Source of the DNA: Candidatus Bathyarchaeia archaeon
Lineage (GTDB): Archaea > Thermoproteota > Bathyarchaeia > Bathyarchaeales > Bathycorpusculaceae
Assembly (NCBI GenBank): GCA_038882955.1
Contig: JAVZNC010000001.1
Location: forward strand, 128,001 to 192,000
Reading direction: 5' to 3'
Length of the DNA: 64,000 nt
Positions 1,712 through 37,777 of this stretch are shown piece after piece. Position 1 is the stretch's first letter. Each line of letters opens with the position of its first letter. The notes under the pieces are model-generated. The model worked only from the letters and a program-made list of their open reading frames with translations, had not been told where the DNA came from and ran no database searches. Position numbers and translations under genes: made by a program.

Positions 1712-1721
1712 GCTAGACAAA

Positions 1722-1919
1722 TTATTTTTTAGCTAAAAACGTGTGCCCTCCTTTCATTTTGGCAAATAAAGCATAAATGATTATGGCAATCATTGACATG
1801 AATAATGCTAAAGTGTAGTATCCAAACTTAATGTGCACATCAAGCAGATACAACAAAACAGCAAATATAATTACCAAAACAATTGCTAGTAGAAAAAGTC
1901 TTGTTTTCGGCGACAACAT
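1722..1919 (-). CDS. Small two-helix membrane protein, unknown function
   Basis: 65 aa with two hydrophobic segments; co-directional and 21 bp downstream of rad50. Confidence 0.6.
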   Translation of the reverse strand: MLSPKTRLFLLAIVLVIIFAVLLYLLDVHIKFGYYTLALFMSMIAIIIYALFAKMKGGHTFLAKK

Positions 1920-1940
1920 CTTTTCATCGCCACAACCATG

Positions 1941-20365: not shown

Positions 20366-20380
20366 AAGGAGGAAGCAAAT

Positions 20381-22076: not shown

Positions 22077-23939
22077 GTGTACGGCTATGCTGGTCGAGTA
22101 CTCCACATAGATTTAACAACAGGAAAAACTCACGTTGAACCATTAAACGAAGACTACGCAAAAAAATATATCGGCGGAATAGGCCTAGGCATGCGCCTCT
22201 GGCTTGACCACTCACAAGCGGGAGTAGACCCGTTAAGTCCAGAAAATCCGCTGATTCTCACAACAGGTCCAGTTTCAGGCACGGTCTGGCCAACTGGCGG
22301 AAACGGCCACGCTTTTGTGGCGAAATCTCCTCAAAGCTACGGTGTGGGCGAAGCTAAATCGCACGGTTCGTTTGGAACGGAGCTGAAGAGGGCTGGATAC
22401 GACGCCGTGATTTTAAAGGGGAGGGCGGAAAAGCCCGTTTACGTTTGGATTGACGATGATTCTGTTCAGCTATTAAGCGCTTCACATTTAATGGGAAAGT
22501 CACCAGCTGACACCGAAGACGCGATAAAAGAGGAACTTGGCGACTACTACATTCGCGTAGCGGCAATAGGTCCAGCTGGAGAAAAACTCGTTCGAATAGC
22601 ATGCATAATAAATGAAAAGACCAGGGCTGCTGGAAGAACTGGGCTAGGCGCCGTTATGGGTTCAAAGAACCTTAAGGCAATCGCTGTCCGCGGAACCCAC
22701 GACATCACTGTGGCAAAACCAGACGAGTTCATGGAGTTCGTCAAAGAATTTCACGAAAGAATGAAGGGACCAGCCACGCAGAAATATAGAACTTTAGGCA
22801 CGCCAGAAAACGTCTTGGTACACAACGCCTTGCACTGTATGCCCACAAGAAACTATAACAACGCGTATTTTGAGGCAGCTGAGAAAGTGAGCGGAGAGGC
22901 ATTAAACGAGCGATACGTCGCAAAAATAATTGGATGCAGCTCATGTGCAATGCGATGTGAGCACGTTTGCGTAGTAACAGAGGGACCATACAAGGGTGCC
23001 ATGACACGGATGGAGTATGAGCCGCTTTGGGCTATGGGACCGTACTGCGGCGTTGACCGCCTGGACGCCATAATAAAGGGCATGGACTTGTGCAACTATT
23101 ATGGGATAGATGCCATCAGCGCTGGAGTGATTGTTGGCTTCGCAATGGACTGTTACGAAAATGGAATTTTAACGCAGAAGGACATGGACGGACTGGATGC
23201 ACGTTTTGGCAATCATGAAGCACTGGTTCAGCTTATAGAGAAAATGGGCAAACGCGAGGGGATAGGCGACATTCTCGCAGAAGGCGTAAAAGTTGCTGGA
23301 GAAAAAATAGGCAAGGGCGCAGAAAAACTCGCCCAACACATCAAGGGCGTCGAAGTTACGGGATACGACTTAAGATGCTTAAAAACAGCTGCCTTGGGCT
23401 TCGCAGTCTCCTTCAGAGGGGCAGACCATAATAGGCACGGCGCTTACGCTTTCGACGTGAAGGGAAAAGTTAACCGTTTGGTTGCCGAGAAGGGAAGAGG
23501 AAAAATGGTTAAGGACATGGAGGACATGTACACCATAATTGATTCGATGATAGTCTGCAAGTTCTCAAGGGGAACATACTACAAGGAAGCAGAAGACCTT
23601 GCGAAGCTTTACACTTTGGTGACTGGAATTGAGATGACGCCGGAAGAAATACGTCGTTGCGGCGAAAGAATAAACAATGTAGCAAGAGTTTTCAATGTCA
23701 GAGAAGGCTTAAGCAGAAAAGACGACACGTTACCATGGAAGGTCATGCACCAGCCAATCCAAGATGAGGGACCAGCCAAAGGCGCCTACGTTTCACAGGC
23801 GGAGCTGGACTTGCTTTTGGATGATTATTACGAGGCGCGTGGATGGACAAGGGAGGGCATACCAAAAGTAGAGAAGCTTAAGGAGTTAGGCATAGACGAC
23901 TTAATTCACATAGTTGAAGGAAAAATAAAAGGAGCGTAG
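22077..23939 (+). CDS. aor: Tungsten aldehyde:ferredoxin oxidoreductase family protein
   Basis: KSP, AAGRTGLGAVMGSKNLKAI, CSSCAMRC, EYE, DSMIVCKF, YYEARGW. Confidence 0.92.
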   Translation: MYGYAGRVLHIDLTTGKTHVEPLNEDYAKKYIGGIGLGMRLWLDHSQAGVDPLSPENPLILTTGPVSGTVWPTGGNGHAFVAKSPQSYGVGEAKSHGSFGTELKRAGYDAVILKGRAEKPVYVWIDDDSVQLLSASHLMGKSPADTEDAIKEELGDYYIRVAAIGPAGEKLVRIACIINEKTRAAGRTGLGAVMGSKNLKAIAVRGTHDITVAKPDEFMEFVKEFHERMKGPATQKYRTLGTPENVLVHNALHCMPTRNYNNAYFEAAEKVSGEALNERYVAKIIGCSSCAMRCEHVCVVTEGPYKGAMTRMEYEPLWAMGPYCGVDRLDAIIKGMDLCNYYGIDAISAGVIVGFAMDCYENGILTQKDMDGLDARFGNHEALVQLIEKMGKREGIGDILAEGVKVAGEKIGKGAEKLAQHIKGVEVTGYDLRCLKTAALGFAVSFRGADHNRHGAYAFDVKGKVNRLVAEKGRGKMVKDMEDMYTIIDSMIVCKFSRGTYYKEAEDLAKLYTLVTGIEMTPEEIRRCGERINNVARVFNVREGLSRKDDTLPWKVMHQPIQDEGPAKGAYVSQAELDLLLDDYYEARGWTREGIPKVEKLKELGIDDLIHIVEGKIKGA

Positions 23940-23943
23940 CATT

Positions 23944-24450
23944 ATGGTTAAGATTCACGAGAGAAAATTCGTCACAGCAGACCCAGACAAGTGTGTAGGA
24001 TGCCAAGTATGTGAATACGTCTGCTCTTTTACGAAGGAGAAGTCTTTCAACCCTTTAAAGTCGAGAATACGCGTTGTGCGGTTGAACCCGCTTGTAAACA
24101 TTTCAATCTCATGTAGGCTATGCGAAGACCCGCCATGCGTTGCCGCTTGCCCGAGAGACGCCCTTTCGCAGTCTGAAGAAAACGGCATAATAATAGTTGA
24201 CGAGGACAAATGCAATGGATGCGGATGGTGCATTGAGGCATGCGATTACGGCGCGATAATGATACACCCAGAAAAGAAGACGGTGTTTGTCTGCGACCTC
24301 TGCAAGGACAAAGGCGAACCACAATGCGTTAAATGGTGCCCAGAAGAAGCCTTAGACCTAGTAACAAGCGACGTCCTAGCGCAGAAGGCAAGGATTGCAG
24401 CTACAAAGAAGCTTTTCCAAGAAGCAATGAAAGTAACCGCTGGAACCTAA
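23944..24450 (+). CDS. 4x[4Fe-4S] electron transfer protein (DmsB/HydN-like), AOR partner
   Basis: CVGCQVCEYVC, CRLCEDPPCVAACP, CNGCGWCIEAC, CDLC..PQCVKWCP; 4 bp after aor. Confidence 0.9.
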   Translation: MVKIHERKFVTADPDKCVGCQVCEYVCSFTKEKSFNPLKSRIRVVRLNPLVNISISCRLCEDPPCVAACPRDALSQSEENGIIIVDEDKCNGCGWCIEACDYGAIMIHPEKKTVFVCDLCKDKGEPQCVKWCPEEALDLVTSDVLAQKARIAATKKLFQEAMKVTAGT

Positions 24451-24497: not shown

Positions 24498-24998
24498 TTA
24501 TGGGAGGACCTCCAAAAGCAGATTAACAATTTTTGTGGCTGAAGCTGCAACCTCTCTTGTTAAGCCTTCGCTGAACTCTGCACTTTTCGGTTGTATGAGC
24601 AGCAAGGCAATTTTCGCCTCCAAAGTTTTGGATAGGTACTCACAAAACAAGCGCAGCGGAAGCATGTGCGTTGAAAACGCTGAAGAAAACGCCAAATCCT
24701 CTGGATAAACAAGCCTTGCCTCTCCTGGCTTCAGCCCCAGAACTGCAGCGTCAATTAGTAAGACATGTGTTGGGTTGAAATCTATTATCTGTTGTATGAA
24801 ACTTTCTGGGACGGTTTCGCATTCAATCAGAAAAACCTTCGCGGAGACTTTTCCGCGGAGGTCTTGGACAATCTTGACTCCGACAAAGTCGTCCATTCTT
24901 ATTGGGTTTCCGATTCCGGCGATAACAACTTTTTTTGCGTTAGAAAGCCAGTTCTTTAAATCTTTTTTTAGCTTTTGATTAACCAAAAAATTCGCCAT
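24498..24998 (-). CDS. hycI: [NiFe]-hydrogenase maturation endopeptidase (HycI-like)
   Basis: GIGNPIRMDDFVG, ETVPE, IDAA, STH-x-LP; follows mvhA. Confidence 0.9.
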   Translation of the reverse strand: MANFLVNQKLKKDLKNWLSNAKKVVIAGIGNPIRMDDFVGVKIVQDLRGKVSAKVFLIECETVPESFIQQIIDFNPTHVLLIDAAVLGLKPGEARLVYPEDLAFSSAFSTHMLPLRLFCEYLSKTLEAKIALLLIQPKSAEFSEGLTREVAASATKIVNLLLEVLP

Positions 24999-25017
24999 AA
25001 ATAAAGTGGGGGGATGT

Positions 25018-26472
25018 TTATCTTTGCAATGTTTTTATTAGTTTCTTTTCGTTGTTGAAGATTTCTATTGTTAGCGGCATCTGTCCAAAAGCGAAGTGGG
25101 TGGCACATCCAAAGCACGGGTCATACGCCCTAAAAGCCATTTCAACCATATTCAAAATGCCATGGTCAACTTTGTCGCCGTGTATCAAGCCTTTAGCGGC
25201 ATTCCGAACAGACATGTTTATTGATGGACTGTTGTTGACCGTCGCAACTATTAGGTTAACGTCTCTTATCAGTGCATTTTCATCCAAAACGTAATGGTGA
25301 ATAAGCGTTCCCCTAGCTGCTTCAACAACGCCCACGCCTTCTCCCGGCGCGCCTGGCTTGTTGCGCACATCCTTGCTCGTTATTTCTGGGTCTCTGCTTA
25401 GTTCAAAAGCTCTTTCAGCAGCATAGAGTAGTTCTATTAGCCTAGCCCAGTGATAGGCAAGCGTTGAGTGAACTGGTTTTCCGCCAAGCGTCTTATACAT
25501 AAACTCGTACTCTTCCTGCGCCAGTGGCGTTGCCATCCCGTCTGCAGCGTTAAGTCTTCCAAGCGGTCCAACACGATATGCTCCGCTTTCTGGACCGTCA
25601 ACAAAGCCTTTCCATCCAATTTTCTTTAGGTATGGGAATTTCACGTAAGTCCACTCTTCAACGTGTTCTGCAATGTGGTCAAGGTAGTTTTTGGCTTCGA
25701 ACTTCACGAATTCTTTGCCGTTGGGGTCTACAACGCGGATTTTGCCGTCGTAAAAGTTCACTTTGTTGTTTTCGTCAACTAAGCCCATATAGTAAGTTCG
25801 AAGAGTGTAAGCGTCGCTCTTAATCAAGTCGACGTATTTGCTGTTTCCAAGAACAATGTCATGGAAAAGTTTCAGCGAAAACTTGGCGAAGTTCACGGCT
25901 GAAGAAGCCATCTTCTCAATTTCGCTCCGCTCTTCTTCGCTTAATGGTTTGGAGATTCCGCCTGGAATTCCGCAGACTGGATGTGTGGCTTTTCCGCCGA
26001 TTATTTCGGTTATCCTCTGCCCATAGGCTCTGTGCTTTATGACTTCTTTGCCGATTTCGAGTCCAGCCTTTTCGATGACGCCTATGACGTTTCTTTTTTC
26101 TGGTGGGGCGTCTGGTCCTACGACGAAGTCTGGTCCGCCCAAATAATAGAAGTGTAGTGTATGGTCGTAAATGTAGTAGCCGCAGTACATTAGTTCGCGG
26201 AGTTTTTTGGCTGCTGATGGCGGTTCAACGTTGAACGCTGCGTCCAAAGCTTTTGTTCCAGCCATGTGATGCGCAACTGGGCAAACGCCGCAAATCCTAC
26301 TCGTCAAAAGCGGCATGTCCTCAGCCTTTCTTCCAACACAAAACTTTTCAAAACCCCTGAGTTCTGGAATCTGTAGGTAGGCGTTTTCCACTTCGCCCGC
26401 ATCGTTTAGAAATATGGCTATTTTTCCGTGTCCCTCAAGCCTCGTTATCGGGTCAATAACAACCTTCCTCAT
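25018..26472 (-). CDS. mvhA: Group 3c [NiFe]-hydrogenase large subunit (copy 1)
   Basis: TRLEGHG, L1 RICGVCP, L2 RAYDPCFGCATH plus cleavable C-terminal extension; context mvhG/hdr. Confidence 0.93.
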   Translation of the reverse strand: MRKVVIDPITRLEGHGKIAIFLNDAGEVENAYLQIPELRGFEKFCVGRKAEDMPLLTSRICGVCPVAHHMAGTKALDAAFNVEPPSAAKKLRELMYCGYYIYDHTLHFYYLGGPDFVVGPDAPPEKRNVIGVIEKAGLEIGKEVIKHRAYGQRITEIIGGKATHPVCGIPGGISKPLSEEERSEIEKMASSAVNFAKFSLKLFHDIVLGNSKYVDLIKSDAYTLRTYYMGLVDENNKVNFYDGKIRVVDPNGKEFVKFEAKNYLDHIAEHVEEWTYVKFPYLKKIGWKGFVDGPESGAYRVGPLGRLNAADGMATPLAQEEYEFMYKTLGGKPVHSTLAYHWARLIELLYAAERAFELSRDPEITSKDVRNKPGAPGEGVGVVEAARGTLIHHYVLDENALIRDVNLIVATVNNSPSINMSVRNAAKGLIHGDKVDHGILNMVEMAFRAYDPCFGCATHFAFGQMPLTIEIFNNEKKLIKTLQR

Positions 26473-27461
26473 TTTTGCATAATCCTCCTACGCAAAATTG
26501 AAGCTGGCAAAGCGTACATGTAAAAAGTGCCAATCGGATCCTTTATTTGGCTAACCAGTTTCTCCACTTCCTCTTCCGTGTATTTTTCCTTCTCCTCTTC
26601 CAAGCCAAGTATAGATGCAAGCGCACTTATCATGGCTGCTCCTTGTTCTGGCGAGTTCGGACACGGTCCACCGCATCCCGTGCACGGCATGTCTGCCTTT
26701 AAGCATCTTGCTCCGCATCCGCCTCTTGTGGCGGGTCCCATGCAGATTATTCCCTGTTCCAGTAGGCATTTTTCTGGTTCTGGAGCCTTCTCGTAAACGC
26801 GGTATACACGCGATATCTTCTTGTTCTCCTTCTTTCTTGGACATTCATCGCAAACAGACTTTAGCGGCGCAAGCACAGAGCCTTTCGGCGGCAATTCGCC
26901 TTTGGCTATGACTTCCAAAGCGTATAAAGTGCGTTCAACCGCTGGTGGACAGCCAGGAACATAATAATCCACATCCACGGTCTGGTCAAGCGTTCTAACA
27001 GTGTCATAGAACTCTGGAATGTCTAATTCGCCCTCCTTAACCGCAACTTTCGGCTTTGGCACAGTCTTGTTTGGGTTTGCAGTTGAAAATGTCTCAGCAT
27101 AAACCTTCTCGAAAATTTCTTCGCGGTTAGTCAAGTTCGCAAGTCCTGGAACCCCGCCGAGGTGCGCACAGGCGCCATAGGCAACGAGTATTTTTGATTT
27201 TTGCCTCAAAAGTTTAGCCATGTGCTCCTGCTCGCTGTTGCGGATCCCACCATTAAAGAAACACACGTCAATATACTTGTCAGGCATCGCCTCAACATCT
27301 TTGTATTTTATGTCTATGGCCACTGGCCAAAAGACGATATCGGCTATTTGCAGTACATCCAGTATTTTTTCGTTTATGTCGAGAACGGCGATTTCGCAGC
27401 CACCACAACTCGCAGCCCAATAAAACGCAAATTTCAGCTTATTCTTACTCATTTTATGCAC
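26469..27461 (-). CDS. mvhG: Group 3c [NiFe]-hydrogenase small subunit (copy 1)
   Basis: SCGGC, GACA, PGCPP, VCDECP, CLLEQGIICMGPAT, CTGCGG. Confidence 0.92.
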   Translation of the reverse strand: MHKMSKNKLKFAFYWAASCGGCEIAVLDINEKILDVLQIADIVFWPVAIDIKYKDVEAMPDKYIDVCFFNGGIRNSEQEHMAKLLRQKSKILVAYGACAHLGGVPGLANLTNREEIFEKVYAETFSTANPNKTVPKPKVAVKEGELDIPEFYDTVRTLDQTVDVDYYVPGCPPAVERTLYALEVIAKGELPPKGSVLAPLKSVCDECPRKKENKKISRVYRVYEKAPEPEKCLLEQGIICMGPATRGGCGARCLKADMPCTGCGGPCPNSPEQGAAMISALASILGLEEEKEKYTEEEVEKLVSQIKDPIGTFYMYALPASILRRRIMQK

Positions 27462-28359
27462 CTTCCAACGCTGTTTTCAATATTTTTGAGGCATCAACCC
27501 TAAGCTCGTTGAAGGCAAGCTCTTCTGGTGGTATTCCCATCGCCAAGCCGAGCAACTGCGTATAATGCAGTATAGGTATGCCGTAGGTTTCGTTGAACAT
27601 TTTTTCTATGCGCAACTCGTTAGTGTCATACATTATGTGGCAGAATGGACATATCGTGATCATGGCTTGGGCGCCAACCATCTTTATGTGATTAAGCTTG
27701 TCCCGTGCAAGCTGAAGTGCAATCTTGTCGTTCACGCCCACGCTTGGAGCACCACAACACTCTGTCTCGTCGAGATAGTCTAGGCATGTGGCGCCAGTAG
27801 CCTCCACAAGCCTCTTAAGCGTCTGCGGGTCTTCTGGGTCGTCAAATCCAATGTATTCTTTCGGTCTCAAAATGTGGCAGCCGTTATGTTCTGCAACCCT
27901 AAGCGCCGTTAAAGGCTTTACAATCGCATTCTTTATCCGTTCCAAGCCAACATCCTCGATGAGCACCTGCATCAAGTGCTTTGCGTCTATTGTTCCTTTA
28001 AACTCTAAACCAGTTTCTTTCAAGTGTTTGTTTATTTCTTCGCGCAGTACCTTGTCTTCCTTCAACATCTTATTAACTTTCTTAAGCGTGCCAGCACAGC
28101 CAGGACAAAGTGTTAAAATGTTTAGTCCCTCACGCTCTGCCAGAGCGAGGTTTCTCGCCGCCAAAATGAGCATCATTTCGTGGCTTACTGGGTCCATTGG
28201 CAAGCCGCAGCAGTTGAATTCTGGCATCTCAACGAGTTCTACGCCTAATTTTTGAAGCACTTTCCGCGCTGAGATTTCGTAGGCTGAAACCCTGTAGGGT
28301 ATTGCGCATCCGAGGAAGATTAGGAATTTATTTTGTGGCACTTTTCTCACCTTCAACAA
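27454..28359 (-). CDS. hdrB: Heterodisulfide reductase subunit B (copy 1)
   Basis: Two CCG domains: GC..NCCG..CPGC and GCH..ECCG..CPFC. Confidence 0.92.
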   Translation of the reverse strand: MLKVRKVPQNKFLIFLGCAIPYRVSAYEISARKVLQKLGVELVEMPEFNCCGLPMDPVSHEMMLILAARNLALAEREGLNILTLCPGCAGTLKKVNKMLKEDKVLREEINKHLKETGLEFKGTIDAKHLMQVLIEDVGLERIKNAIVKPLTALRVAEHNGCHILRPKEYIGFDDPEDPQTLKRLVEATGATCLDYLDETECCGAPSVGVNDKIALQLARDKLNHIKMVGAQAMITICPFCHIMYDTNELRIEKMFNETYGIPILHYTQLLGLAMGIPPEELAFNELRVDASKILKTALEGA

Positions 28360-28861
28360 ACTTTAGGAAGCCTACGCCGTGGAGACTCTTTCTAATGCTT
28401 TCGGGGTTTCCACGCGGCAAGGGCGGCAAACCCAGACTTTCCCTCTTCTTTATTCGCAGGTCTGGGATTTTGTAGGCGTATCCAGACTCTAGGATGCTTG
28501 ACGCTTGCTCCTTGAAAACTTGCGGTATATAGCCTCTTTCAGCTGCCAAATTACGGAGCACGCGTATGACGCTTGCAACTTCAACGTCTTGTGGACATCT
28601 GTCCGTGCACGTAAAACACGAGGCGCAAAGCCACAACGTGTCGCTACTCAAAACTCTTTCACGTAAACCAAGCTGCGTCATGCGTATAATCTGCCTAGGT
28701 CTATAAGTGTCGCTGAACTTTGCTATGGGACAGTCGGAAGTGCATGTGCCGCACTGGAAGCAGAGCATGAGTTTTTCTCCGCCTGGCAGCTTCGCAATTT
28801 CATATTTAAATTTGGGGTCAATTTCAGAAGCCTTTATGGGTTCTTTTTCTGCTTGCGACAT
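28328..28861 (-). CDS. hdrC: Heterodisulfide reductase subunit C (copy 1)
   Basis: CFQCGTCTSDCP and LWLCASCFTCTDRCP. Confidence 0.92.
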   Translation of the reverse strand: MSQAEKEPIKASEIDPKFKYEIAKLPGGEKLMLCFQCGTCTSDCPIAKFSDTYRPRQIIRMTQLGLRERVLSSDTLWLCASCFTCTDRCPQDVEVASVIRVLRNLAAERGYIPQVFKEQASSILESGYAYKIPDLRIKKRESLGLPPLPRGNPESIRKSLHGVGFLKFVEGEKSATK

Positions 28862-29298
28862 TAAGTTTTAACCTCCATTTTCTTTAGGGGGCTTGGACCA
28901 AGCTTTTTTATTTCTTCAACCATTTCGCGTACTATGGCTGCGAAACGGTCTCCTTCGCTTGCGGAAACCCATTCCAGCCGCAGACGTTCTGGTTCGATTC
29001 CAAATTCTTTCAGAATTTTCCTTAATAATGTTACCCTTCTCAAAGCCTTAAAGTTTCCACTAATATAGTGGCAATCTGATGGCAGGTGGCATCCAGCCAC
29101 TAGCACGCCGTCGGCTCCGTTTTTGAATGCTTCCAAGATGAAGATTGGGTCGATTCTGCCGCTGCACATGACGCGTACAATCCTAATGTTTGGCGGATAT
29201 TGGATTCGGCTTACGCCTGCTAGGTCTGCGCCTGCGTAGCTGCACCAGTTGCATAGGAAACCGATTATTTTTGGTTCAAAATTCTCTTTTTCTGTCAT
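28861..29298 (-). CDS. mvhD: Hydrogenase-associated [2Fe-2S] subunit MvhD
   Basis: [36 protein letters not shown]. Confidence 0.95.
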
Positions 29299-32200
29299 GT
29301 TGCCGCCTCCACCAATGCGGCTCTAACTTGGGCAAGTATTTCTTCTGTTGTGAAGTGCCCCATGATGATGGCTTTTGTTGGACATGCTGTTCCGCAAGCG
29401 CCGCAGCCCTTGCATAAAGCTTCAATTACGTGTGCCGTAAGTTTGCCGTCTTTCTCTTTCATCTCTATTGCCCCATATGGGCATAGATATTCACAAATCC
29501 TACATCCGCTACATAAATCTTCGTTCACGTTTGCCACAATTCCCTCCATCTCAAGCGTGGATTTCGAAAGTATCGTTGCGGCTCTCGCGGCTGCAGCACA
29601 GGCTTGCGCTATGCTTTCGTCAATGTATTTTGGTGAGTGCGCCATCCCGCATAGGAACACGCCTTCAGTTGCGAAGTCAACTGGTCTAAGTTTCATGTGT
29701 GCTTCTAGGAAGAAGCCGTCCTTTGTTAGTGGGACTTTGAGCATTTCTGCCACGCGTTTGTTGTCTGGGTTTGGAATTGTTGCCGCGCTTAAAACGACAA
29801 GATCTGGTTCGATTTCGATTTCTTCTTTTAGCACTGGCTCCCAGAACCGCACTTTAAGTTTAGCGCCTTCATTAACGACTTGTGGTTTCCTTTCATCCTC
29901 ATAGTTTATGAAGAGCACGCCTTTTGTTGCGGCTTCGCGGTAATAATCCTCCTTAAAGCCGTAAGCCCTAACATCCTTGTATAACACGTAAACTTCTGTT
30001 TGTGGGCTTAACTCCTTAATTTTTAGGGCGTTCTTTATTGCTTGTCCGCAGCATATCCTCGCGCAGTTTGGTCTCTCTTCGTTTCTTGCTCCAACGCATT
30101 GCACCATGACCACGGTTTTTGCTTTGAAGTTGCCTTTTGCAAGTTTTTCTTCAAGCTCCCTTTGGGTAAGCACCCTCGGGTCTGTGCCGTAAAGATATTC
30201 TCTGGGTTTGTATTCTGTTGCTCCAGTAGCCACAATTATTATGCCATTTTCAACTTCCACTTCTCCGCCGTTGTGCCGCTTTATCTTAGTTTTGAAGTTG
30301 CCGACGAATCCTTCTATGTTGACAACTTCAGAGTTCAAGTGAACGTGTATTTTGCTGTTCGCCATGACCTCGTTTACTAGGGCTTTCAGCTTTTCTTGCG
30401 GGTCTTCATCGCCTTCAAGCAGATAGTGTATGTGGCGCAGATGCCCGCCGAGTTCTTTCTCTCTTTCCACTAGGTGAACCTCAAAGCCTTGCTTTGCGAG
30501 TTCTAGGGCTGCGGTCATGCCAGAAACTCCACCGCCTATGACCAAACCTACTGGAGTAACGGTTATTTGCGGTTTCTTTAACGGTTGTAGAAGCCTTGCT
30601 TTCGCGACAACTGAGCGCACAAGGTCTTTTGCTTTTTCTGTTGCTGCTTTCGGTTCGTGCATGTGCACCCAACTGCATTGATCACGTATGTTTGCCATCT
30701 CGAAAAGGTATGGGTTTAATCCCGCCTCTTGAACCGTTTCTCTGAACAGCGGCTCGTGAGTGCGTGGAGTGCAAGAGGCTACGACAACACGGTTTAGCTT
30801 GTATTGTTGGATTTTTTCTCTGATTAGTTTCTGCGTGTCTTGCGAGCACGTATAGAGGTTTGCTTCTGCGTAAACCACGTTTGGCAATTTTTTAGCGTAC
30901 TCAACAACTTCTGGAACGTTTACGACGCCGCCTATGTTGATTCCACAGTGGCAGACGAAAACGCCTATTCGCGGTTCTTCTTGGCTTATGTCCCTTTCCT
31001 GCGGGTACTCCTTAACCGTTACAAGTTTGCCCCTTTCGTTTGCGATTATGCTCATGGCTTTTGCCGCTGCACCGCTTGCTTGGGCAACGCTTTCTGGAAT
31101 ATCTTTTGGCGCGCTGAATGCGCCGCAGACGAAAACGCCAGATCTTGAAGTTTCTAACGGCGTGAAAGTGTTTGTTTTGCAGAACTTGTACTTGTTAAGT
31201 TCTATTCCAAGCGCTTCTGCAAGTTTTTCAACACTTTTTGGCGGTTGCATGCCGATGGAGAGCACAACCATGTCAAATTCTTCTGTTTTCGGCGTTTCAT
31301 TCTCAACATAATGCACGATGAGGTTTCCAGTCAGAGGGTCTTCGGACACGCCTGCAACCCTTGACCTTACAAATCTTATTCCCCACTCTTCTTTGGCGCG
31401 GTTGTAGTAGGCGTCAAACTCTTTTCCGTAAGCGCGCAAATCCATAAAGAATATTGTGGCGTCAAGCTTTGTTGGCGTATGCTCCTTGGCTATGACAGCT
31501 TCTTTCATTCCGTACATGCAACACGCTGCGGAGCAATAGTTGTTTCCAAGCTGGGCATCACGAGAACCAACACACTGGATGAAGGCTATTTTCTTTGGGA
31601 TTTCGCCGTCAGAAGGTCTCAAAACGACGCCGCCGTAGGGTCCAGAAGCACTTAGTATGCGCTCAAACTCTATGCTTGTCACAACATTCGCGTAGCGCCC
31701 ATAGCCGTACTCGCTTTTCAGCCGAGCATCGAATGTTTCGAAACCTGGTGCAAGTATTATTGCACCTACTTTTAGCACTGCTTCGCTGTCTTGTTGGTCG
31801 TAAGCCACAGCTTTTGCTTTGCATATTTCGTAGCATGTTCCGCAGCCGATGCACTTTTCGCGGTCAATCTTGTACTTGAGTGGAACCGCTTGCGGATAGT
31901 CAACGTAGATTGCGCTTCTGTTGCTTAAGCCTTCGTTGTAAATGTCTATGGCTTCAATTGGACATTTTTGTGCGCATAAGCCGCAGCCGTTGCATTTATC
32001 TTCGATTATGTAACGGGCGCGTTTTCGAAGTTTAACTTCGAAGTTTCCGGCTTCGCCTTCCACGCCTAAAATTTCCGTGTTAGTCAAAATTGTTATGTTC
32101 GGATGCCTACCGGTAGCCACAAGTTTAGGCGAGAGAATGCACATTGAACAATCGTTTGTCGGAAAAGTCTTGTCAAGCTGAGCCATTACGCCGCCGATGC

Positions 32201-32324
32201 TTGCGCCCTCGTCGATAAGGTACACTTTGAAGCCAGAATCAGCCAAGTCCAAGGAAGCTTGGATTCCAGCAACTCCTCCGCCGACAACGAGAACTGCGCC
32301 AACTTTTTGGTTCTTGTCTGCCAT
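29295..32324 (-). CDS. hdrA: Heterodisulfide reductase subunit A, large two-FAD-module form (1009 aa)
   Basis: [17 protein letters not shown], ferredoxin insert, QCVGSRD..CSAACC; second module CHCG..CTP..GGGVSG..QCVGAR..CARICC; C-terminal 2x[4Fe-4S]. Confidence 0.92.
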
Positions 32325-32325
32325 C

Positions 32326-33069
32326 CTACTTCACCTCCAACGCCTTATAAAGGGGCGTTGTCTTCACAAAACGTTCTATCGTTATCATGTTCTTCCTACG
32401 CATGTTCACAATCTGCTTAAGAACATCTGCAGGCTTAATTCCAAGCGCTTTAGCCAAATCTTTAACCGAAAGCGGCTTTGTCTTGGTCAGCAAGTGGATT
32501 TTGTGGCGTAGGAAATCTTCCTTAACGATTTCGTCCATCAAAAAGTCGAATTCCTCTTGCGAGATTTTTTCTCCATAAACGTTTATGCTTTCCGTAAGCT
32601 CTTTTTCCCTTCCAAGCAAAACTCTAAGCCTAAAGTCAGAAGCCGCGTTTTTAGCAGCCAAAATGTTTAGCATAAGTTCTGATTCTGGAGACGCTTTTAT
32701 TGGAGATTCTCCAAGCCCAGTTATAACGGTGTTAAACTCTTTCAAGTGTTGGATGAAGCTTTCTCCTTCTAGCGGTGTGTACCATTCAAGCTTTACGCGT
32801 TCCGGCTCCAAACCAGCAAGTGCAACAAGCTTCTTTAGAAGTTTAACGGCTCTTTCCGCATGAAGATTTCCTTCAATATAGTGGCAGTCTGGCGGTTTAC
32901 AACCAACCATTAAAACGCCGTCAGCGCCATTAGCAAGCACGTCAAGAACAATGGCTGGGTCGAGCCTTCCAATGCACATTACACGGGCGACGTTAACGTT
33001 TTTTGGAATTTCCATTTCTTCTAGGCAGAAAGCCCAATTACACATGAAACAAACAATTTTTGCGCTCAT
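32326..33069 (-). CDS. MvhD-like [2Fe-2S] protein with C-terminal winged-HTH-like extension
   Basis: CNW, RVMCIGR, GCKPPDCHY in first about 120 aa; tail PLSVKDLAKALGIKPADVLKQIVNMRRKNMI resembles an HTH. Confidence 0.8.
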   Translation of the reverse strand: MSAKIVCFMCNWAFCLEEMEIPKNVNVARVMCIGRLDPAIVLDVLANGADGVLMVGCKPPDCHYIEGNLHAERAVKLLKKLVALAGLEPERVKLEWYTPLEGESFIQHLKEFNTVITGLGESPIKASPESELMLNILAAKNAASDFRLRVLLGREKELTESINVYGEKISQEEFDFLMDEIVKEDFLRHKIHLLTKTKPLSVKDLAKALGIKPADVLKQIVNMRRKNMITIERFVKTTPLYKALEVK

Positions 33070-34823
33070 GTTCTCGCCTCCTCAACTTGCAAGGCAAGGC
33101 TTAATATGCGTTCATTCGAAAACTTCTTCATCGAAATTGCTTGTTCTGGACACCGCGCAGCACATATTCCGCAGCCCTTGCAAAGCTCCTCGTTAACTTG
33201 TGCAATTTCCTTCTCGTTCTTTTTTATCGCTCCGAATGGGCATACAACAGCGCAGACATTGCATCCAACGCACAAGTTTTCGTCAACGACAGCCTTGTCG
33301 CCCTCGCATAAGTCCAGCTCTGCTAAGCATTCTGCGCATGGTCCGCAGCCTAGACAGCGAAAAGCCTCAAAAACTGCCTCACGTTTTAACTTTTCAAGGT
33401 AAACTTTAGCCTCTTCAAAGCTTAGGTGAGGCTTTTCTAACGGAGGCTCGTATCTGCGCTCCTTCTTTTTGATGTAGCCCCAATTCTTAACCCAAGTCGT
33501 TTCCTCAATTTTTTCTTCTCTTGCGCTTCTCGGGTCCTGTCCGCGAAGGTAAAGGTGAATTGAAACTGCCGCTTTTTTGCCTGCCCCAACAGCCTCAATT
33601 ATGCTTGCCGGTCCAGTAGCCATGTCGCCGCCAGCAAAAACGCCTTTCACACTTGTTTCCATAGTTGCGAAGTCAACTTTTATTGATGGCGTTCTTGCCT
33701 CTTTGTCTAAAAGTTCTGGCGGCACGCATGACAATTCTAGGACTTGCCCAAGCGCGGGTATAACCATGTCAACCTCGTATTGATGCTCTGAAAAGCTTAT
33801 TGGGATAGGCTTTCTTCTTCCACTCTCGTCTGGTTCTCCGAGACGCATCCTTATACATTCAACAGCCTTAACCTTGCCATTTTCGCCTATTATCTGCTTT
33901 GGAGCGACCAAAAAGTAGAATTTAACTCCGTCTTTTTCTGCTTCCGCCACCTCGTGCGGCAGTGCGGGCATCTCTTCGCGTGAACGCCTATACAATATCA
34001 TTACTTCTTTTGCGCCAAGCTTCTTTGCGGTTCTAGCCGCGTCTATGGCTGTGTTCCCGCCGCCTATCACGGCGACTCTTTCACCAACTTTTATAGGTTC
34101 GCCCAGCGATATAGCCCTCAAAAAGTCAACAGCATTTATTACGCCTTCAAGCTCCTCGCCTGGAACGTTCAGCTTCATGCCCTTCTGCGTTCCGATTGCG
34201 AGGAAAATTGCCTTATACCCATCTTTGCGCAGGCTCTCAAGCGTTATATCCTTTCCAAATTCCACGCCAGTCTTTATTTCCACGCCCAAATCCTTTATGT
34301 AGGCGATTTCGTTTGCCACAACAAACTTTTCGAGGCGGAAGTTTGGTATGCAGTAGCGCATCATTCCGCCAGGCTCACTCATTCGCTCAAAAACGGTTAC
34401 TGGATAACCAAGTTTCGCAAGTTCGTAGGCTGCCGTTAAACCCGCTGGTCCAGCACCTATTATGGCGACTTTTTCGCTGTACTTCTTTGGGATTGGTTCT
34501 GGTTTCACGCGTCCCTGCTCTCTTTCAATGTCTGCGACAAGCCTTTTTAGTGCGCGTATTGCCACGGCTTGGTCAACGTTTGTTCTTGCACATGCATCTT
34601 CGCATGGGCTGAAGCACACGCGTCCGCAGATGGCAGGGAATGGCATGTCCTTGCGGATTATTTCAACTGCTTCTTTGAATTTGCCTCTTTGAAGCAATGC
34701 GACATATCCTTGAACGTTGACGTGTGCTGGGCATGCGGAGCGGCATGGCGGTAGTTTCTTTACTTTTGTTTGGTTATTCTTTGTCATTGTCAAACCAGCT
34801 TGAGAATTAATCTTATGAAACAC
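33066..34823 (-). CDS. GltD/NfnB-like FAD- and NAD(P)-binding Fe-S oxidoreductase with C-terminal ferredoxin
   Basis: [50 protein letters not shown], then two CxxCxxCxxxCP motifs; start may be ATG at 34787. Confidence 0.88.
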   Translation of the reverse strand: MFHKINSQAGLTMTKNNQTKVKKLPPCRSACPAHVNVQGYVALLQRGKFKEAVEIIRKDMPFPAICGRVCFSPCEDACARTNVDQAVAIRALKRLVADIEREQGRVKPEPIPKKYSEKVAIIGAGPAGLTAAYELAKLGYPVTVFERMSEPGGMMRYCIPNFRLEKFVVANEIAYIKDLGVEIKTGVEFGKDITLESLRKDGYKAIFLAIGTQKGMKLNVPGEELEGVINAVDFLRAISLGEPIKVGERVAVIGGGNTAIDAARTAKKLGAKEVMILYRRSREEMPALPHEVAEAEKDGVKFYFLVAPKQIIGENGKVKAVECIRMRLGEPDESGRRKPIPISFSEHQYEVDMVIPALGQVLELSCVPPELLDKEARTPSIKVDFATMETSVKGVFAGGDMATGPASIIEAVGAGKKAAVSIHLYLRGQDPRSAREEKIEETTWVKNWGYIKKKERRYEPPLEKPHLSFEEAKVYLEKLKREAVFEAFRCLGCGPCAECLAELDLCEGDKAVVDENLCVGCNVCAVVCPFGAIKKNEKEIAQVNEELCKGCGICAARCPEQAISMKKFSNERILSLALQVEEART

Positions 34824-34844
34824 ATCGGATATATTAGTGCATTC

Positions 34845-34860
34845 GCGTTAAGTTTAACGC
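34845..34860. promoter_or_regulatory. Perfect inverted repeat GCGTTAA-gt-TTAACGC, candidate operator
   Basis: 7-bp arms with 2-bp spacer, just upstream of the GltD-like/hdr/mvh run. Confidence 0.5.
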
Positions 34861-34896
34861 AAAAATAACATAAAGGTAAAGAAAAGGGGAAATAAT
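34861..34896 (-). terminator. U-rich tract downstream of the RHH-GcvH gene (archaeal-type terminator candidate)
   Basis: Minus strand reads attatttccccttttctttacctttatgttattttt immediately after the stop. Confidence 0.4.
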
Positions 34897-35487
34897 TTAT
34901 TCGCGCAGTCTACCTTCAAGCTTGCTTACCCACTTGTTGTATTCGCGGGCGCTCAACAACTTCTTAAGTTCCTGCTCTAAAGTTAACGAGTTGTTCGGCT
35001 TAATCTCCACAATCCAGCCTTCGCCGTATGGGTCTTCGTTAACGAGGTTTGGCTCGTTCTTCAGCTTCTCGTTTACTTTGACTATTTTGCCGCTTACTGG
35101 CGCGTACAAGTCGAACATGAACATCCATGTTTCCGCGACGCCGAATGGCTCCATGTGGCTTATTTCTTTTCCAACTGGTTCGGTCATTATGTTTGCTATG
35201 CCCTTCAAATGCCTTTGGGCATAGTCTGAAACGCCGACGCGGATGTTCCCTTCAGGTGTTACTTGTGCCCATGTGTGTTTTGGCGTGTAGAGGAGAAGTT
35301 CAGGTGTTAGGAGCAATTCCTTGCGTTTTTCTGCAGGTATGCCTTCTGCGCGCATTAGATCTTCGAGGCGTAGGCGGATGGCTTCTGAGACGAATTCTGA
35401 TATGCTTCTGTAGCGCCCTGTTTTGATTGCTTCTTCAATCTGTTTTATTAGTTCTTGTCTTATGCTTACGGTTTTCCATTCAGACAT
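34897..35487 (-). CDS. Ribbon-helix-helix (CopG/MetJ-like) domain fused to GcvH-like domain lacking the lipoyl lysine
   Basis: N-term KTVSIRQELIKQIEEAIKTGRYRSISEFVSEAIRLRL; C-term YTPKHTW, VGVSDYAQ, DLYAPVSGKIVKVN, VNEDPYGEGWIVEI; ESVK replaced by ETWM. Confidence 0.85.
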   Translation of the reverse strand: MSEWKTVSIRQELIKQIEEAIKTGRYRSISEFVSEAIRLRLEDLMRAEGIPAEKRKELLLTPELLLYTPKHTWAQVTPEGNIRVGVSDYAQRHLKGIANIMTEPVGKEISHMEPFGVAETWMFMFDLYAPVSGKIVKVNEKLKNEPNLVNEDPYGEGWIVEIKPNNSLTLEQELKKLLSAREYNKWVSKLEGRLRE

Positions 35488-35565
35488 TTTCCATCAACCT
35501 CCTTTACATCTGAAGCATATATAACATAAACCAAAGATATATACTTGATGCATATATTTTACGCA

Positions 35566-35582
35566 ATAGTAAATACCATATA
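35566..35582. repeat. 17-bp direct repeat copy 1 (ATAGTAAATACCATATA), candidate operator
   Basis: Identical to 35905-35921; core ATAGTA-AA-TACCAT is an imperfect palindrome. Confidence 0.7.
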
Positions 35583-35591
35583 TAAAATCGC

Positions 35592-35804
35592 TTAATGCTT
35601 CAACTCTCTCCCAAACCCCAGCAAGTTCCAAACGCGCTCATGAAAATAATAAACAACAGTCTTCAAAACAAGCTCTGACATTCCAACAACCCCGCCTAAA
35701 CTCCAATCGCCCTTACTAAATATTACGACCAACAAGATTGTTGTTAAAGTTGCAACAATTCGCCAAGAAATCGCCTTCACCAAACTTCTAATTGGTTTCT
35801 CCAA
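35592..35804 (-). CDS. DUF2061-like small membrane protein
   Basis: RSLVKAISWRIVATLTT ... YYFHERVW pattern. Confidence 0.8.
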   Translation of the reverse strand: MEKPIRSLVKAISWRIVATLTTILLVVIFSKGDWSLGGVVGMSELVLKTVVYYFHERVWNLLGFGRELKH

Positions 35805-35904: not shown

Positions 35905-35921
35905 ATAGTAAATACCATATA
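35905..35921. repeat. 17-bp direct repeat copy 2 (ATAGTAAATACCATATA), candidate operator
   Basis: Identical to 35566-35582; ends 4 bp before the GTG of the AbrB-PhoU regulator. Confidence 0.7.
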
Positions 35922-35925
35922 GACG

Positions 35926-37008
35926 GTGAAGCTTTTGGAAAGTAGAAAAGTGCAAAAAGTTGGCTACTCAACGCTGACTGTTTCACTTCCAAGCGAATGG
36001 ACAAAACAAAACAACATAAACCCTGGAGACCTAGTTTTCCTAATGCCAGAAAGAGACGGCACACTAAAGATTATGCCAAGCCACTTCGCCCTAAAAGAGG
36101 AAGCAGAAGAATATATCATTAACGCCGATGCCTGCGACGAGAAGGGCATGCTCGAGAGGATAATCGTCGGAAGCTACATGCTTGGAAGGGACGTTTTAAG
36201 GGTTGTATCCACAACAAGAATAAGCAAGGAACATGTTGACGAGATTAGGCGGATAGTTCCAAAACTAATTGGTCTCGGAATACTTGAAGAAACACCAAAA
36301 AACATACTACTCCAATGCTCAGTAGACCCGTCAAAATTCAAACTTGACATGCTTGTTAGACGCTTGTCGCTAATCGCATCAACAATACTTTTAGAGGCGA
36401 TGCAGGCGTTCCAAGAAAATAACGAAGATTTAGCTATAGAAGCCATCAGCCGCGAGGATGAGGCTGACACCATTTATTATCTTGCTGTTCGCTTGCTTCT
36501 TTCTGCGCAAGTTAAACCCGAAATTGCTGAGCAGATAGGCGCGACGGATGTGCTCTTTATACCAGCTACGAGGCTGATACTTCAATATTTAGAGTTGATT
36601 GCGGACTATTCAGAAGATATAGCCAAAAAAATCGTTGAGTTAAAGGTTTATCGCAACCGGATTCCATCAGACGTTGTGCAGAGAATTTTCCACATGGGCG
36701 AGTTAGCCCAAACCATATTCCAGAAAGCCCTAGACTGCATTTTCACAAGAGACCTTCGCGTGGCTAATGGCGTATTAGAAATGAAGGAAGTTCTCGAAAG
36801 GGAAGCTGAAAGACTGATGCGTGAAGCCCCAGAAATTCCGTATTTAAGGGCTTACATTTCATGCCTAACCAAAATTGCGGATAAGGGAGCGACAATTGCT
36901 GACATAGCCATAAACAGAGCATTGGAACAGCCCAAAAAAGAGGTTGAAGACATTGTCCGCGTGGTAAAGCATGTGCGGTCTATCCCATTAACTGCAAAGA
37001 ACGCTTGA
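35926..37008 (+). CDS. phoU: Archaeal AbrB/PhoU-domain transcriptional regulator
   Basis: N-terminal RKVQKVGYSTLTVSLP-x-x-W..GD (AbrB/SpoVT-type) followed by two PhoU-like helical repeats (EDEADTIY, LELIADY). Confidence 0.85.
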   Translation: MKLLESRKVQKVGYSTLTVSLPSEWTKQNNINPGDLVFLMPERDGTLKIMPSHFALKEEAEEYIINADACDEKGMLERIIVGSYMLGRDVLRVVSTTRISKEHVDEIRRIVPKLIGLGILEETPKNILLQCSVDPSKFKLDMLVRRLSLIASTILLEAMQAFQENNEDLAIEAISREDEADTIYYLAVRLLLSAQVKPEIAEQIGATDVLFIPATRLILQYLELIADYSEDIAKKIVELKVYRNRIPSDVVQRIFHMGELAQTIFQKALDCIFTRDLRVANGVLEMKEVLEREAERLMREAPEIPYLRAYISCLTKIADKGATIADIAINRALEQPKKEVEDIVRVVKHVRSIPLTAKNA

Positions 37009-37100: not shown

Positions 37101-37571
37101 ATGAGCAGTTTTGAGGAAGCCCTCCGAAACATAGATGTTTTCTGCAAGGTTCTGGTAAAGAAGCTTATTGAAAACGAAGCGGAAGAAATAAGCGACGTTG
37201 TTGTGGAGCCCATGGAGAAACTCATTTATAAAAAATACGTAATCAGCGAGCAAATAGAGCCAAGTCCTGTTAAGCATTTAATTCCATTACCACAGCTTGA
37301 AGAGCCCTTGATAGACGTGTTTGAGGACGAGAATTATGTAAGAATCCTTATACAGTGCAAATGCAAAGACCAAAAAATAACTGTTCACACGGACGTGGAT
37401 GGCATAGAAATATGCAACAAAGTCTGCTACAAGAAGGATGATGGAAATGAGGTTTGCGTTGACGAGTGCCGAAAGGTAACTCTTCCAGTTGATCACTTGA
37501 AAATTGAAAACATGGTTACGAAATGCAACAACAATGAGGCGCTTGAAATAGAGATTCCAAAAGAAAACTGA
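37101..37571 (+). CDS. Hsp20/alpha-crystallin-like protein, Cys-rich
   Basis: EEPLIDVFED..VRI, R-K-V-T-LP, NN-x-x-LEIEIPK resemble archaeal sHSP strands. Confidence 0.5.
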   Translation: MSSFEEALRNIDVFCKVLVKKLIENEAEEISDVVVEPMEKLIYKKYVISEQIEPSPVKHLIPLPQLEEPLIDVFEDENYVRILIQCKCKDQKITVHTDVDGIEICNKVCYKKDDGNEVCVDECRKVTLPVDHLKIENMVTKCNNNEALEIEIPKEN

Positions 37572-37576
37572 CCCAT

Positions 37577-37777
37577 TTACGATTCGCTTGCCTCTCGACG
37601 TTTTATCCTAATTTTGCACCTCTCTTCATCGCTACATTTTATGCAGGTGTAAATAACGTCGAATTCGCTTTTACTTGGGTCAGATGGATTCACGAAAAAG
37701 GCGAAGCACTCCTCACCGCGCTTTATTGGTGCTCCACAACAGAAGCACTTGTGCTCTTTTAGGGCGGTCACCTTCAT
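37577..37777 (-). CDS. Small zinc-finger-like protein
   Basis: 66 aa with CFCCGAPIKRGE and YTCIKC; preceded by GGAGTGG RBS-like sequence. Confidence 0.65.
   Translation of the reverse strand: MKVTALKEHKCFCCGAPIKRGEECFAFFVNPSDPSKSEFDVIYTCIKCSDEERCKIRIKRREASES

Follow-up and report, generated by a model that had tools for sequence, protein, structure and literature searches.

A stretch of 64,000 nucleotides from the genome of a Candidatus Bathyarchaeia archaeon (assembly GCA_038882955.1, contig JAVZNC010000001.1, positions 128,001 to 192,000; hereafter the window) encodes a 196-aa protein in which an N-terminal ribbon-helix-helix (RHH) module is joined to a glycine-cleavage H-protein (GcvH) domain devoid of the lipoyl-lysine. 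The architecture of this RHH-GcvH protein, the loss of the lysine, its conservation and the linkage of its gene are established herein. With regard to function, a NikR-like transcription factor whose pseudo-H-protein domain would sense a signal or bind a partner is the interpretation we favour, and it is judged to have slightly better than an even chance of being correct; its binding to DNA is putative, as are the operator, the signal and the direction in which transcription would be regulated. The union of an RHH module with an enzyme-derived, non-lipoylatable H-protein domain suggests a novel combination for an RHH regulator, with a mechanism that we infer from the features set out below. 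The gene, which belongs to the first of two paralogue types (A and B), and the parts of its product are as follows.

34897 to 35487, minus strand: gene for the type A RHH-GcvH protein lacking the lipoyl-lysine, stop codon included; 196-aa open reading frame (ORF) with Pfam GCV_H and RHH_1 matches.
35347 to 35487, minus strand: ribbon-helix-helix module, residues 1–47, with a strand at about residues 4–10 and helices at 9–22 and 29–47 (Pfam RHH_1, NikR profile match, AlphaFold2 (AF2) helices).
35296 to 35346, minus strand: linker, residues 48–64, with a short helix at 52–59 (AF2 block with a predicted local distance difference test score (pLDDT) of 74–87).
34924 to 35295, minus strand: GcvH-fold domain, residues 65–188 (Pfam GCV_H, PF01597, E = 1e-31; Foldseek).
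35110 to 35133, minus strand: former lipoylation hairpin E-T-W-M-F-M-F-D, residues 119–126 (alignment to 3ift).

The H-protein identity of the larger domain is evident from both sequence and predicted structure. The AF2 monomer, built from a 90-row alignment, has a mean pLDDT of 87 and displays, in order, helices 9–22 and 29–47, the linker helix 52–59 and then the GcvH fold, with the linker being the most variable segment of the protein (alignments A1 and A3). Foldseek superimposes the model on solved GcvH structures at 30–40 % identity, with a target-normalised TM-score (TMt) of 0.94 and a root-mean-square deviation of 1.3 Å for 3ab9, and a TMt of 0.91 for 3a8j_E; by sequence, the best solved relative is the GcvH of M. 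tuberculosis (3ift, E = 3e-24). As in GcvH, the fold is complete and the HxW motif, G85, P130, G133, N139 and W158 are conserved, and the motifs HTW, VGVSDYAQ, DLYAPVSG and NEDPYGEGW listed by the initial annotation of this DNA are all found in the ORF. Unlike GcvH, the protein carries Met, Trp, Leu or Phe in its family at the position of the lipoyl-lysine, with hydrophobic flanks, and has the added N-terminal RHH module. Specifically, the 3ift alignment sets E-T-W-M-F-M-F-D opposite E-S-T-K-S-V-S-D, so that Met122 (codon 35122-35124, 'cat' on the plus strand) replaces the lipoyl-lysine, and Trp121 stands in place of Val. This hairpin is among the confidently predicted parts of the model (pLDDT of 95–98 for residues 119–126).

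Loss of the lysine is a property of the family. A search of 5.8 billion proteins returned at least 1352 homologues, the best 120 of which are 86–99 % identical to the query, are 196–202 aa long and, where the source is named, derive from Bathyarchaeia/Bathyarchaeota. Not one of these 120 has a lysine at the site; all read ETWMF[MVLI]FDL[YH], and 114 read exactly ETWMFMFDLY. Similarly, the lysine is missing from all 32 diverse full-length relatives, which carry Met (19), Trp (6), Phe (2), Leu (2) or others in its stead. The conservation of the lysine-less motif across homologues excludes both an assembly error and a single-base error, in agreement with the initial annotation, which had already judged a single-base error unlikely. 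Some type A members possess a Lys or Arg two residues past the site (WMFKFD or WMFRFD), and the alternation of the two argues against this being a site of modification. Trp121, retained in 28 of the 32 diverse relatives, is the sole hairpin residue conserved family-wide; a Met/Trp copper site at the hairpin was ruled out on this basis.

These observations bear directly upon the possibility that the protein is a working GcvH or other lipoyl carrier, or a lipoate/sulfur carrier serving HdrB in the manner of LbpA. Most of the best 120 homologues are named 'glycine cleavage system protein GcvH' in databases, with a few called 'ribbon-helix-helix protein, CopG family', and the NCBIfam subfamily model NF002270 is passed (123.2 bits against a cut-off of 117), whilst the equivalog model TIGR00527 is not reached (103.7 bits, cut-off 115.85). 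The window protein contains no Cys at all, and its genome (1.54 Mb, 95.6 % complete) harbours a separate, canonical GcvH of 136 aa, with the sequence VESVKAVSD, on contig C5. In the same whole-genome search GcvT was located on contigs C2 and C19, and GcvP on contigs C4 and C30. None of gcvT, gcvP or canonical gcvH lies in the window, and the RHH-GcvH gene is thus unlinked to gcvT and gcvP; the initial annotation had described gcvT, gcvP and gcvL as absent from the window, and this holds for the first two, the dihydrolipoamide dehydrogenase (L) gene not having been searched for. Going by its gene content, the genome does not need the RHH-GcvH protein for glycine cleavage. It does possess two genes of the BPL_LplA_LipB ligase family, one on contig C8 and one in the window.

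17294 to 17956, minus strand: BPL_LplA_LipB-family protein, 220 aa, single domain, 17 kb from the lysine-less GcvH paralogue.

GcvH-type proteins have been placed beside Hdr genes before. One report proposes that a GcvH within the Ehe/HdrA2B2C2 cluster of Culexarchaeia might carry a disulfide (PMC9723716), and another mentions a putative gcvH near methyltransferase genes in Asgard archaea (10.1101/2023.11.21.568159). LbpA of sulfur oxidisers with the sHdr system likewise has a GcvH fold and is encoded beside hdr genes; LbpA proteins are described as having a strictly conserved lipoyl-lysine and, usually, two Cys (PMC6067878). The RHH-GcvH protein has neither, and its neighbours are of the HdrABC-MvhADG type together with a GltD-like gene, rather than sHdr with lipoate-maturation genes, such that the analogy to LbpA drawn initially fails. 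With no lysine at the site and no Cys, the carrier roles of GcvH and LbpA are rejected as highly improbable.

The N-terminal module is more divergent, and its assignment draws upon several weak but concordant matches. Pfam RHH_1 aligns to residues 6–42 (E = 4.2e-4) and is a borderline pass, at 20.6 bits against a gathering cut-off of 20.5; it matches 14 of the 32 diverse family members at E ≤ 0.01. When a profile of the family is compared to solved structures, the best match that is not a lipoyl protein is the RHH domain of H. pylori NikR (query residues 6–57, E = 0.0047). The CopG/MetJ-type RHH initially ascribed to residues 1–45 is therefore borne out by both RHH_1 and the NikR profile match, and the architecture as a whole, an RHH module followed by a non-lipoylatable GcvH domain, stands on the Pfam matches, the 3ift alignment and conservation among homologues. 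NCBIfam NikR models score 12.8–14.8 bits on the sequence, against cut-offs of 83–119. Within the module, strand positions W4, K/R5, T6, V/I7, V/I9 and R/K10 are conserved in both paralogue types, as is the helix-2 motif S30-E-F-V-x-E-x-I.

The likeness to NikR extends to the overall plan, as both are small proteins in which an N-terminal RHH is followed by a folded C-terminal domain, which in NikR serves sensing and oligomerisation. The NikR C-terminal domain is ACT-like and binds nickel, whereas that of the RHH-GcvH protein has the GcvH fold (a barrel-sandwich hybrid) and lacks a conserved metal-ligand pattern. There is also a resemblance to repressors of the ParD/CopG/MetJ kind, as the stretch G-R-Y-R-S-I-S-E-F-V-S-E-A-I-R is similar to the helix-2 region of ParD. 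These repressors are 45–100 aa in length with short tails, whereas the RHH-GcvH protein, with putative DNA binding, carries a 125-aa enzyme-derived domain.

The similarity to ParD raises the question of whether the protein might be an antitoxin-like component of a toxin–antitoxin or similar two-gene module. When the N-terminal 60 aa are searched alone, 9 of the 14 weak matches are to ParD/CopG antitoxins or NikR (E of 0.15–1.1, the range that also covers the ParD entries of the PDB), and the NCBIfam ParD model TIGR02606 gives E = 1.1e-5. That model is, however, matched with only 25.4 bits against a cut-off of 46.2, and the C-terminal part is a folded GcvH domain of 125 aa rather than a short toxin-binding tail. 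Furthermore, no toxin-like neighbour was seen in any of the 80 loci examined, the surroundings being redox enzymes, TauE and AbrB-PhoU in 80 of 80. An antitoxin role is thus the least probable of all the readings considered.

The predicted structures contribute less to the question of RHH pairing. The strand of an RHH forms only upon dimerisation, and in the AF2 monomer residues 1–8 are coil, the two helices being at their expected places. A two-copy homodimer prediction (alignment A2) scored 0.22 against a mark of 0.42 and is not used as evidence either way. P0121, a protein of 417 aa encoded outside the window, naturally joins a type B and a type A RHH-GcvH unit within one chain; its AF2 model (alignment A4, in which MAFFT placed all single-module relatives on the second half) has a mean pLDDT of 64.5, and values below 50 in both RHH parts render it uninformative on RHH pairing.

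With regard to distribution, some GcvH-type match is present in 281 of 301 genomes of the class, whilst matches to the whole query (from residues 1–3 onwards) are confined to 23 of these, which belong to four families within the order that the window comes from. Across 185,579 species genomes, a scan yielded 80 loci, titled Bathyarchaeia, Bathyarchaeota or Bathyarchaeales in 77 cases, 'uncultured archaeon' in two and 'Thermoproteota archaeon' in one; a single distant protein cluster contains a member named Baldrarchaeota. The RHH-GcvH family, conserved in hot-spring Bathyarchaeia, is almost exclusive to a single order of that class. Cluster representatives searched exhaustively with HMMER added approximately a dozen remoter full-length relatives (33–70 % identity) as well as P0121, and a search of the ESM Atlas retrieved the family itself and ordinary GcvH only.

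The two paralogue types are readily told apart by their hairpins, type A (which includes the window protein) reading ETWMF[MKR]FD and type B E[ST]WWFTYD. Tandem B–A gene pairs occur in 10 of the 80 loci and, together with the P0121 fusion, suggest that the two paralogues work as a pair; both arrangements are consistent with RHH dimers. In a quick tree of the GcvH-like domain, from which three rows with fewer than 90 domain residues had been removed beforehand, all 34 lysine-less rows bearing an RHH and four lysine-less rows without one fall on one side of a branch, with a support of 87 by the Shimodaira–Hasegawa-like approximate likelihood-ratio test (SH-aLRT), which is below the star mark of 95. 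Types A and B form separate groups therein, with support of 86 and 98*, respectively.

The position of the gene was originally described as the head of an Hdr-Mvh locus, and a same-strand run of GltD-like, MvhD-fusion, HdrA, MvhD, HdrC, HdrB, MvhG, MvhA and HycI genes does indeed follow it, with a divergent gene on its other side and a second Hdr/Mvh cluster beyond that, on the upstream side of the RHH-GcvH gene.

33066 to 34823, minus strand: GltD/NfnB-like NAD(P)-binding Fe-S flavoprotein with a C-terminal 2x[4Fe-4S] ferredoxin tail (Pfam Pyr_redox_2, Fer4_20, Fer4_21).
32326 to 33069, minus strand: MvhD (FlpD) domain with a C-terminal part of about 120 aa, 247 aa in all (Pfam FlpD, E = 7.7e-34).
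24498 to 32324, minus strand: HdrA (1009 aa), MvhD, HdrC, HdrB, MvhG, MvhA and HycI (Pfam, NCBIfam).
35592 to 35804, minus strand: DUF2061 small membrane protein, between the RHH-GcvH and AbrB-PhoU genes (Pfam, E = 2.7e-19).
35926 to 37008, plus strand: divergent AbrB/SpoVT-PhoU protein, a putative second regulator (Pfam MazE_antitoxin, AbrB-type, and PhoU).

The GltD-like protein passes NCBIfam PRK12771 (527 bits, cut-off 516), and a conserved ATG context makes the ATG at 34787 (MTKNNQ...) the likely true start of its gene. The MvhD-fusion gene is kept between the GltD-like (or an HdrA-like) gene and HdrA in all related clusters; its C-terminal part gives a weak, sub-threshold match to PF0610-like (winged-helix) proteins (E = 7e-4). 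The DUF2061 gene is an insert found in only part of the related loci.

Two overlapping sets of loci were used to assess linkage. Across 20 loci from 19 related genomes, the RHH-GcvH gene immediately precedes the GltD-like gene in 16 (three of these with an insert of about 1.1 kb), and AbrB-PhoU adjoins it in 19. In the set of 80 loci, which partly overlaps with the former, the next same-strand gene is GltD-like in 67 (in one case past a 629-bp gap) and TauE in 11, with a convergent hydrogenase gene and a contig end accounting for one each. Beyond TauE, three of these 11 loci continue into a NAD-linked hydrogenase of the HoxEFUYH type, two into a GltD-like gene and two into a mixture, whilst in four the stretch ends within one further match. 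AbrB-PhoU is divergent in 71 of the 80 loci (otherwise a contig end in four, nothing in three and another gene in two), and is the steadiest neighbour of the RHH-GcvH gene.

A more discriminating comparison is obtained when loci are chosen by the MvhD-fusion gene rather than by the RHH-GcvH gene itself (35 full-length matches with an identity of 42 % or more, among 121 genomes of the order). The RHH-GcvH gene is upstream in all 22 assessable clusters headed by a GltD-like gene, and in none of the eight with an HdrA-like gene where GltD would otherwise stand, two of the eight having less than 0.8 kb of upstream sequence. The remaining loci comprise one copy internal to a GltD-headed cluster, one GltD fragment without RHH-GcvH and three at contig ends. 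As these relatives are not independent, the contrast is presented as a pattern with no statistic attached. Because the gene is missing from related Hdr/Mvh clusters that begin with a second HdrA, it is not tied to hdr/mvh as such; it tracks the gene for the GltD-like NAD(P)H flavoprotein and, in one genus (g24), TauE-HoxEFUYH instead.

In loci L137–L140, L147, L149, L156 and L159 the second HdrA-like gene sits exactly at the position of the GltD-like gene. This exchange suggests that electron-input modules are swappable at the head of the HdrA-MvhD-HdrCB-MvhGA operon.

The tight association with GltD gives rise to the principal alternative, namely that the protein does not bind DNA and instead assists the GltD-like NAD(P)H flavoprotein module, whether as an accessory subunit, as an adaptor or in its assembly. 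The L protein, which is of the Pyr_redox type, is a docking partner of H protein, and the RHH-GcvH protein might dock on its flavoprotein in the same fashion, with the hairpin in place of the lipoyl arm and the RHH serving only for dimerisation. In keeping with this, the gene stands directly upstream in every GltD-headed cluster chosen by the MvhD-fusion gene and in none with an HdrA-like substitute, and the bulky hydrophobic hairpin, with its near-invariant Trp121, is as expected of a buried interface. Against it, the RHH-GcvH gene heads TauE in five genomes of genus g24. Hox genes are found within the 9 kb examined in two of them (L046 and L047), and the layout (L046 3961-8910; also L105, L113 and L120) runs from RHH-GcvH through a TauE/SafE-family exporter and an ORF of 124 aa that Pfam does not match to genes for a NAD-linked [NiFe]-hydrogenase of the HoxE/F/U/Y/H type. 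The orthologous GltD-like-ferredoxin protein was not found in these five genomes with the GltD-like query, which retrieved a paralogue of 47–50 % identity without the ferredoxin part in four and no match in one; orthologues of the GltD-like protein within one genus are 73–74 % identical. Moreover, the conservation of the RHH strand positions across paralogues goes beyond what dimerisation would need.

An additional gene separates RHH-GcvH from the GltD-like gene in L050–L052, L122 and L125. In L125 and in L122, which is the same stretch as L052, it encodes TauE, and the inserted gene of L050–L052 begins like a membrane protein.

The DNA on either side of the gene carries a series of conserved or otherwise unusual elements, which are pertinent both to promoter structure and to a potential operator.

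35498 to 35502, minus strand: GGAGG Shine–Dalgarno-like motif, 10–14 nt before the ATG, kept in 17 aligned upstream regions, in some with a one-base change.
35517 to 35543, minus strand: two TATATAT boxes, 20 bp from start to start, conserved in the window and 16 related loci; candidate TATA box plus putative operator or second TATA box.
35569 to 35576, minus strand: GTAWWTAC box GTATTTAC (gene orientation), lying 82 nt ahead of the start; candidate operator, from the genome box count.
35908 to 35915, plus strand: second GTAWWTAC box GTAAATAC, 11 nt before the AbrB-PhoU ORF; candidate operator, from the genome box count.
34878 to 34889, minus strand: C/T-rich tract CCCCTTTTCTTT (gene orientation) shortly past the stop codon, like the oligo-T tracts of family-f1 loci; candidate archaeal terminator.
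34845 to 34860, no strand assigned: perfect palindrome GCGTTAA-AC-TTAACGC between the RHH-GcvH and GltD-like genes, upstream of the TATA box.
34829 to 34837, minus strand: TATA box of the TTAATATAT type before the GltD-like gene, with TAATATA at the equivalent position in 11 of the 14 loci compared.

The GGAGG motif recurs ahead of the gene in the window and in 16 related loci, as do a proximal YTATATATC and, approximately 20 bp further upstream, a distal TATATAT; the arrangement TATATAT-N13-15-TATATAT occurs only once in the 1.54-Mb genome, at this locus. The two GTAWWTAC boxes of the window are amongst just 13 exact intergenic examples genome-wide, and exact tandem pairs of this box are absent from the window's own genome. 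In deeper lineages the AbrB-PhoU/RHH intergenic region bears one or two GTAWWTAC boxes, in either orientation, near the start of AbrB-PhoU; where DUF2061 splits the divergent region, there is one box beside each gene. At least one exact box is present in 40 of 69 distinct intergenic regions of this kind, whereas 200 mononucleotide shuffles gave 2.6 such regions on average and 9 at most. The boxes could be operators of the RHH protein or of AbrB-PhoU. As short palindromic elements upstream of the gene they recall the boxes of MetJ, which occur in tandem.

On the downstream side, archaeal termination occurs at oligo-T, and the presence of an oligo-T tract past the stop codon together with a separate TATA box before the GltD-like gene, seen in 11 of 14 loci, are signs that the RHH-GcvH gene may form its own transcription unit, a point that again speaks against a dedicated subunit of the GltD-like module. 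The TAATATA box is absent in L053, L054 and L056 (families f4 and f5), where the gap to the GltD-like gene is short. The palindrome has a core, GTTAA-N2-TTAAC, that is unique in both the window and the whole genome, and in locus L042 its place is taken by TCAA-AC-TTGA, in which both arms are changed. A further pattern, RYGYTAW-N4-RYGYTAW, occurs six times in the genome, which is about the number due to chance by rough estimate, and the other five copies look intragenic or unlike promoters.

Two hot-spring sequencing runs labelled as metatranscriptomic, and flagged 'probably DNA', gave summed contig word depths of 300–3000 for the three main gene bins at 35037-35519, against about 30–150 for the neighbours, and one contig from them bridges 34585-34941. 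Because its DNA is so well conserved, the gene would also attract more sequence from relatives. The depths are not interpretable and the contig does not show a single transcript; neither is used as evidence.

Taken together, a regulator is favoured by an RHH module whose strand positions are conserved, by the signs of a separate promoter and terminator, by the boxes kept among relatives, by the constant association with AbrB-PhoU, itself a putative regulator, and by the fact that different enzyme sets (GltD-Hdr-Mvh or TauE-Hox) follow the gene. As proposed, RHH-GcvH would be a lineage-specific transcription regulator built like NikR or a repressor of the ParD/CopG type, the N-terminal RHH of which would dimerise and read DNA. 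The C-terminal domain would stem from a duplicated glycine-cleavage H-protein that, having lost its lysine and gained a bulky hydrophobic hairpin tip, would no longer carry lipoate and would serve in signal reception, partner binding or oligomerisation. Placed in front of NAD(P)H-linked redox operons (GltD-like-MvhD-HdrA-MvhD-HdrCB-MvhGA or, in one genus, TauE-HoxEFUYH), with the divergent AbrB-PhoU gene beside it, the protein would probably repress or tune those promoters and its own via the GTAWWTAC/TATATAT boxes. AbrB-PhoU may act alongside it as a co-regulator, or may itself be the protein that binds the GTAWWTAC boxes. The initial annotation had suggested a transcription factor for the hdr/mvh genes; the regulator remains the best supported part of that proposal, given the RHH match, the promoter- and terminator-like signals and the conserved boxes, whilst the link to hdr/mvh as such does not stand.

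A number of observations weigh against such a regulator. In locus L037 the identity of RHH-GcvH (90 %) equals or exceeds that of HdrA (87 %) and the GltD-like protein (84 %), and is higher than that of AbrB-PhoU (78 %); conservation at the level of the catalytic subunits is unusual for a regulator and fits a subunit of the complex. The same can be said of the way in which the gene's presence follows that of the GltD-like gene (22 of 22 versus 0 of 8), and in families f4 and f5 the short gap without a TATA motif makes co-transcription with the GltD-like gene possible. The RHH match is statistically weak for a single sequence, clearing its cut-off by 0.1 bits and missing E 0.01 in 18 of the 32 members, and the AF2 monomer is without the N-terminal strand. 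The conserved boxes may equally belong to AbrB-PhoU, and a whole-genome regulon search disclosed no operator common to the GltD-like promoter or other promoters of the genome. Set against the g24 layout, the separate promoter signals and the conserved RHH strand, these points leave the accessory-subunit explanation unlikely, yet the most serious competitor to a transcription factor.

The two are not necessarily exclusive, as a model in which the pseudo-H-protein domain is a mimic of the lipoyl arm would join them. Here, the hydrophobic hairpin would plug into the GltD-like flavoprotein, a relative of L protein, which would in turn titrate the RHH repressor according to its redox state or occupancy. 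This 'trigger-enzyme' circuit would constitute a new class of archaeal redox-sensing factor that sets the levels of Hdr and hydrogenase, with A/B heterodimers adding a second layer of control. Such a scheme is speculative and is considered distinctly improbable in its full form. By functional analogy only, a regulator at these operons would be comparable to Rex-type redox-sensing repressors, which control NAD(P)H-linked hydrogenase and fermentation operons; RHH-GcvH has no relation to Rex in sequence or fold and lacks its Rossmann fold. A full-text literature search found no paper on an RHH-GcvH fusion or a lysine-less GcvH in Bathyarchaeia, although the supplementary gene tables of PMC9723716 and PMC12054007 might list the gene, and this is in line with the initial annotation, which knew of no described regulator with this architecture.

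Several further genes of the window lie close to the two Hdr/Mvh clusters. Between AbrB-PhoU and the second cluster there are two syntenic ORFs without Pfam matches, one of 156 aa (37101-37571, plus strand) and one that is Cys-rich and 66 aa in length (37577-37777, minus strand). Just past the HycI end of the first cluster are an aldehyde:ferredoxin oxidoreductase (620 aa) and a 4Fe-4S dicluster protein (22077-24450, plus strand). An SdhA/FrdA-like flavoprotein gene is followed by that for a 2Fe-2S/4Fe-4S protein fused to two CCG (HdrB-type) domains (18665-21946, plus strand), a layout that we take to resemble thiol:fumarate reductase (TfrAB). This TfrAB-like pair bears on which thiol/disulfide is used by these Hdr complexes.

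Bathyarchaeia are among the most abundant archaea of anoxic sediments and hot springs, and how they govern their electron-bifurcating Hdr/Mvh complexes and NAD(P)H-linked hydrogenases is obscure. At the level of annotation, the routine label 'glycine cleavage system protein GcvH' leads metabolic reconstructions to call glycine cleavage too often and also invites the mistaken idea of a lipoate carrier for HdrB. Were the protein a subunit of the GltD-like module, it would bring a docking mode like that of H protein on L protein into a flavin-based electron-bifurcating complex. If it is a regulator, a small soluble protein with defined candidate operators would offer a concrete handle on the control of these operons, and would show cleanly how an enzyme shuttle protein can be taken over as the sensing part of a transcription factor.

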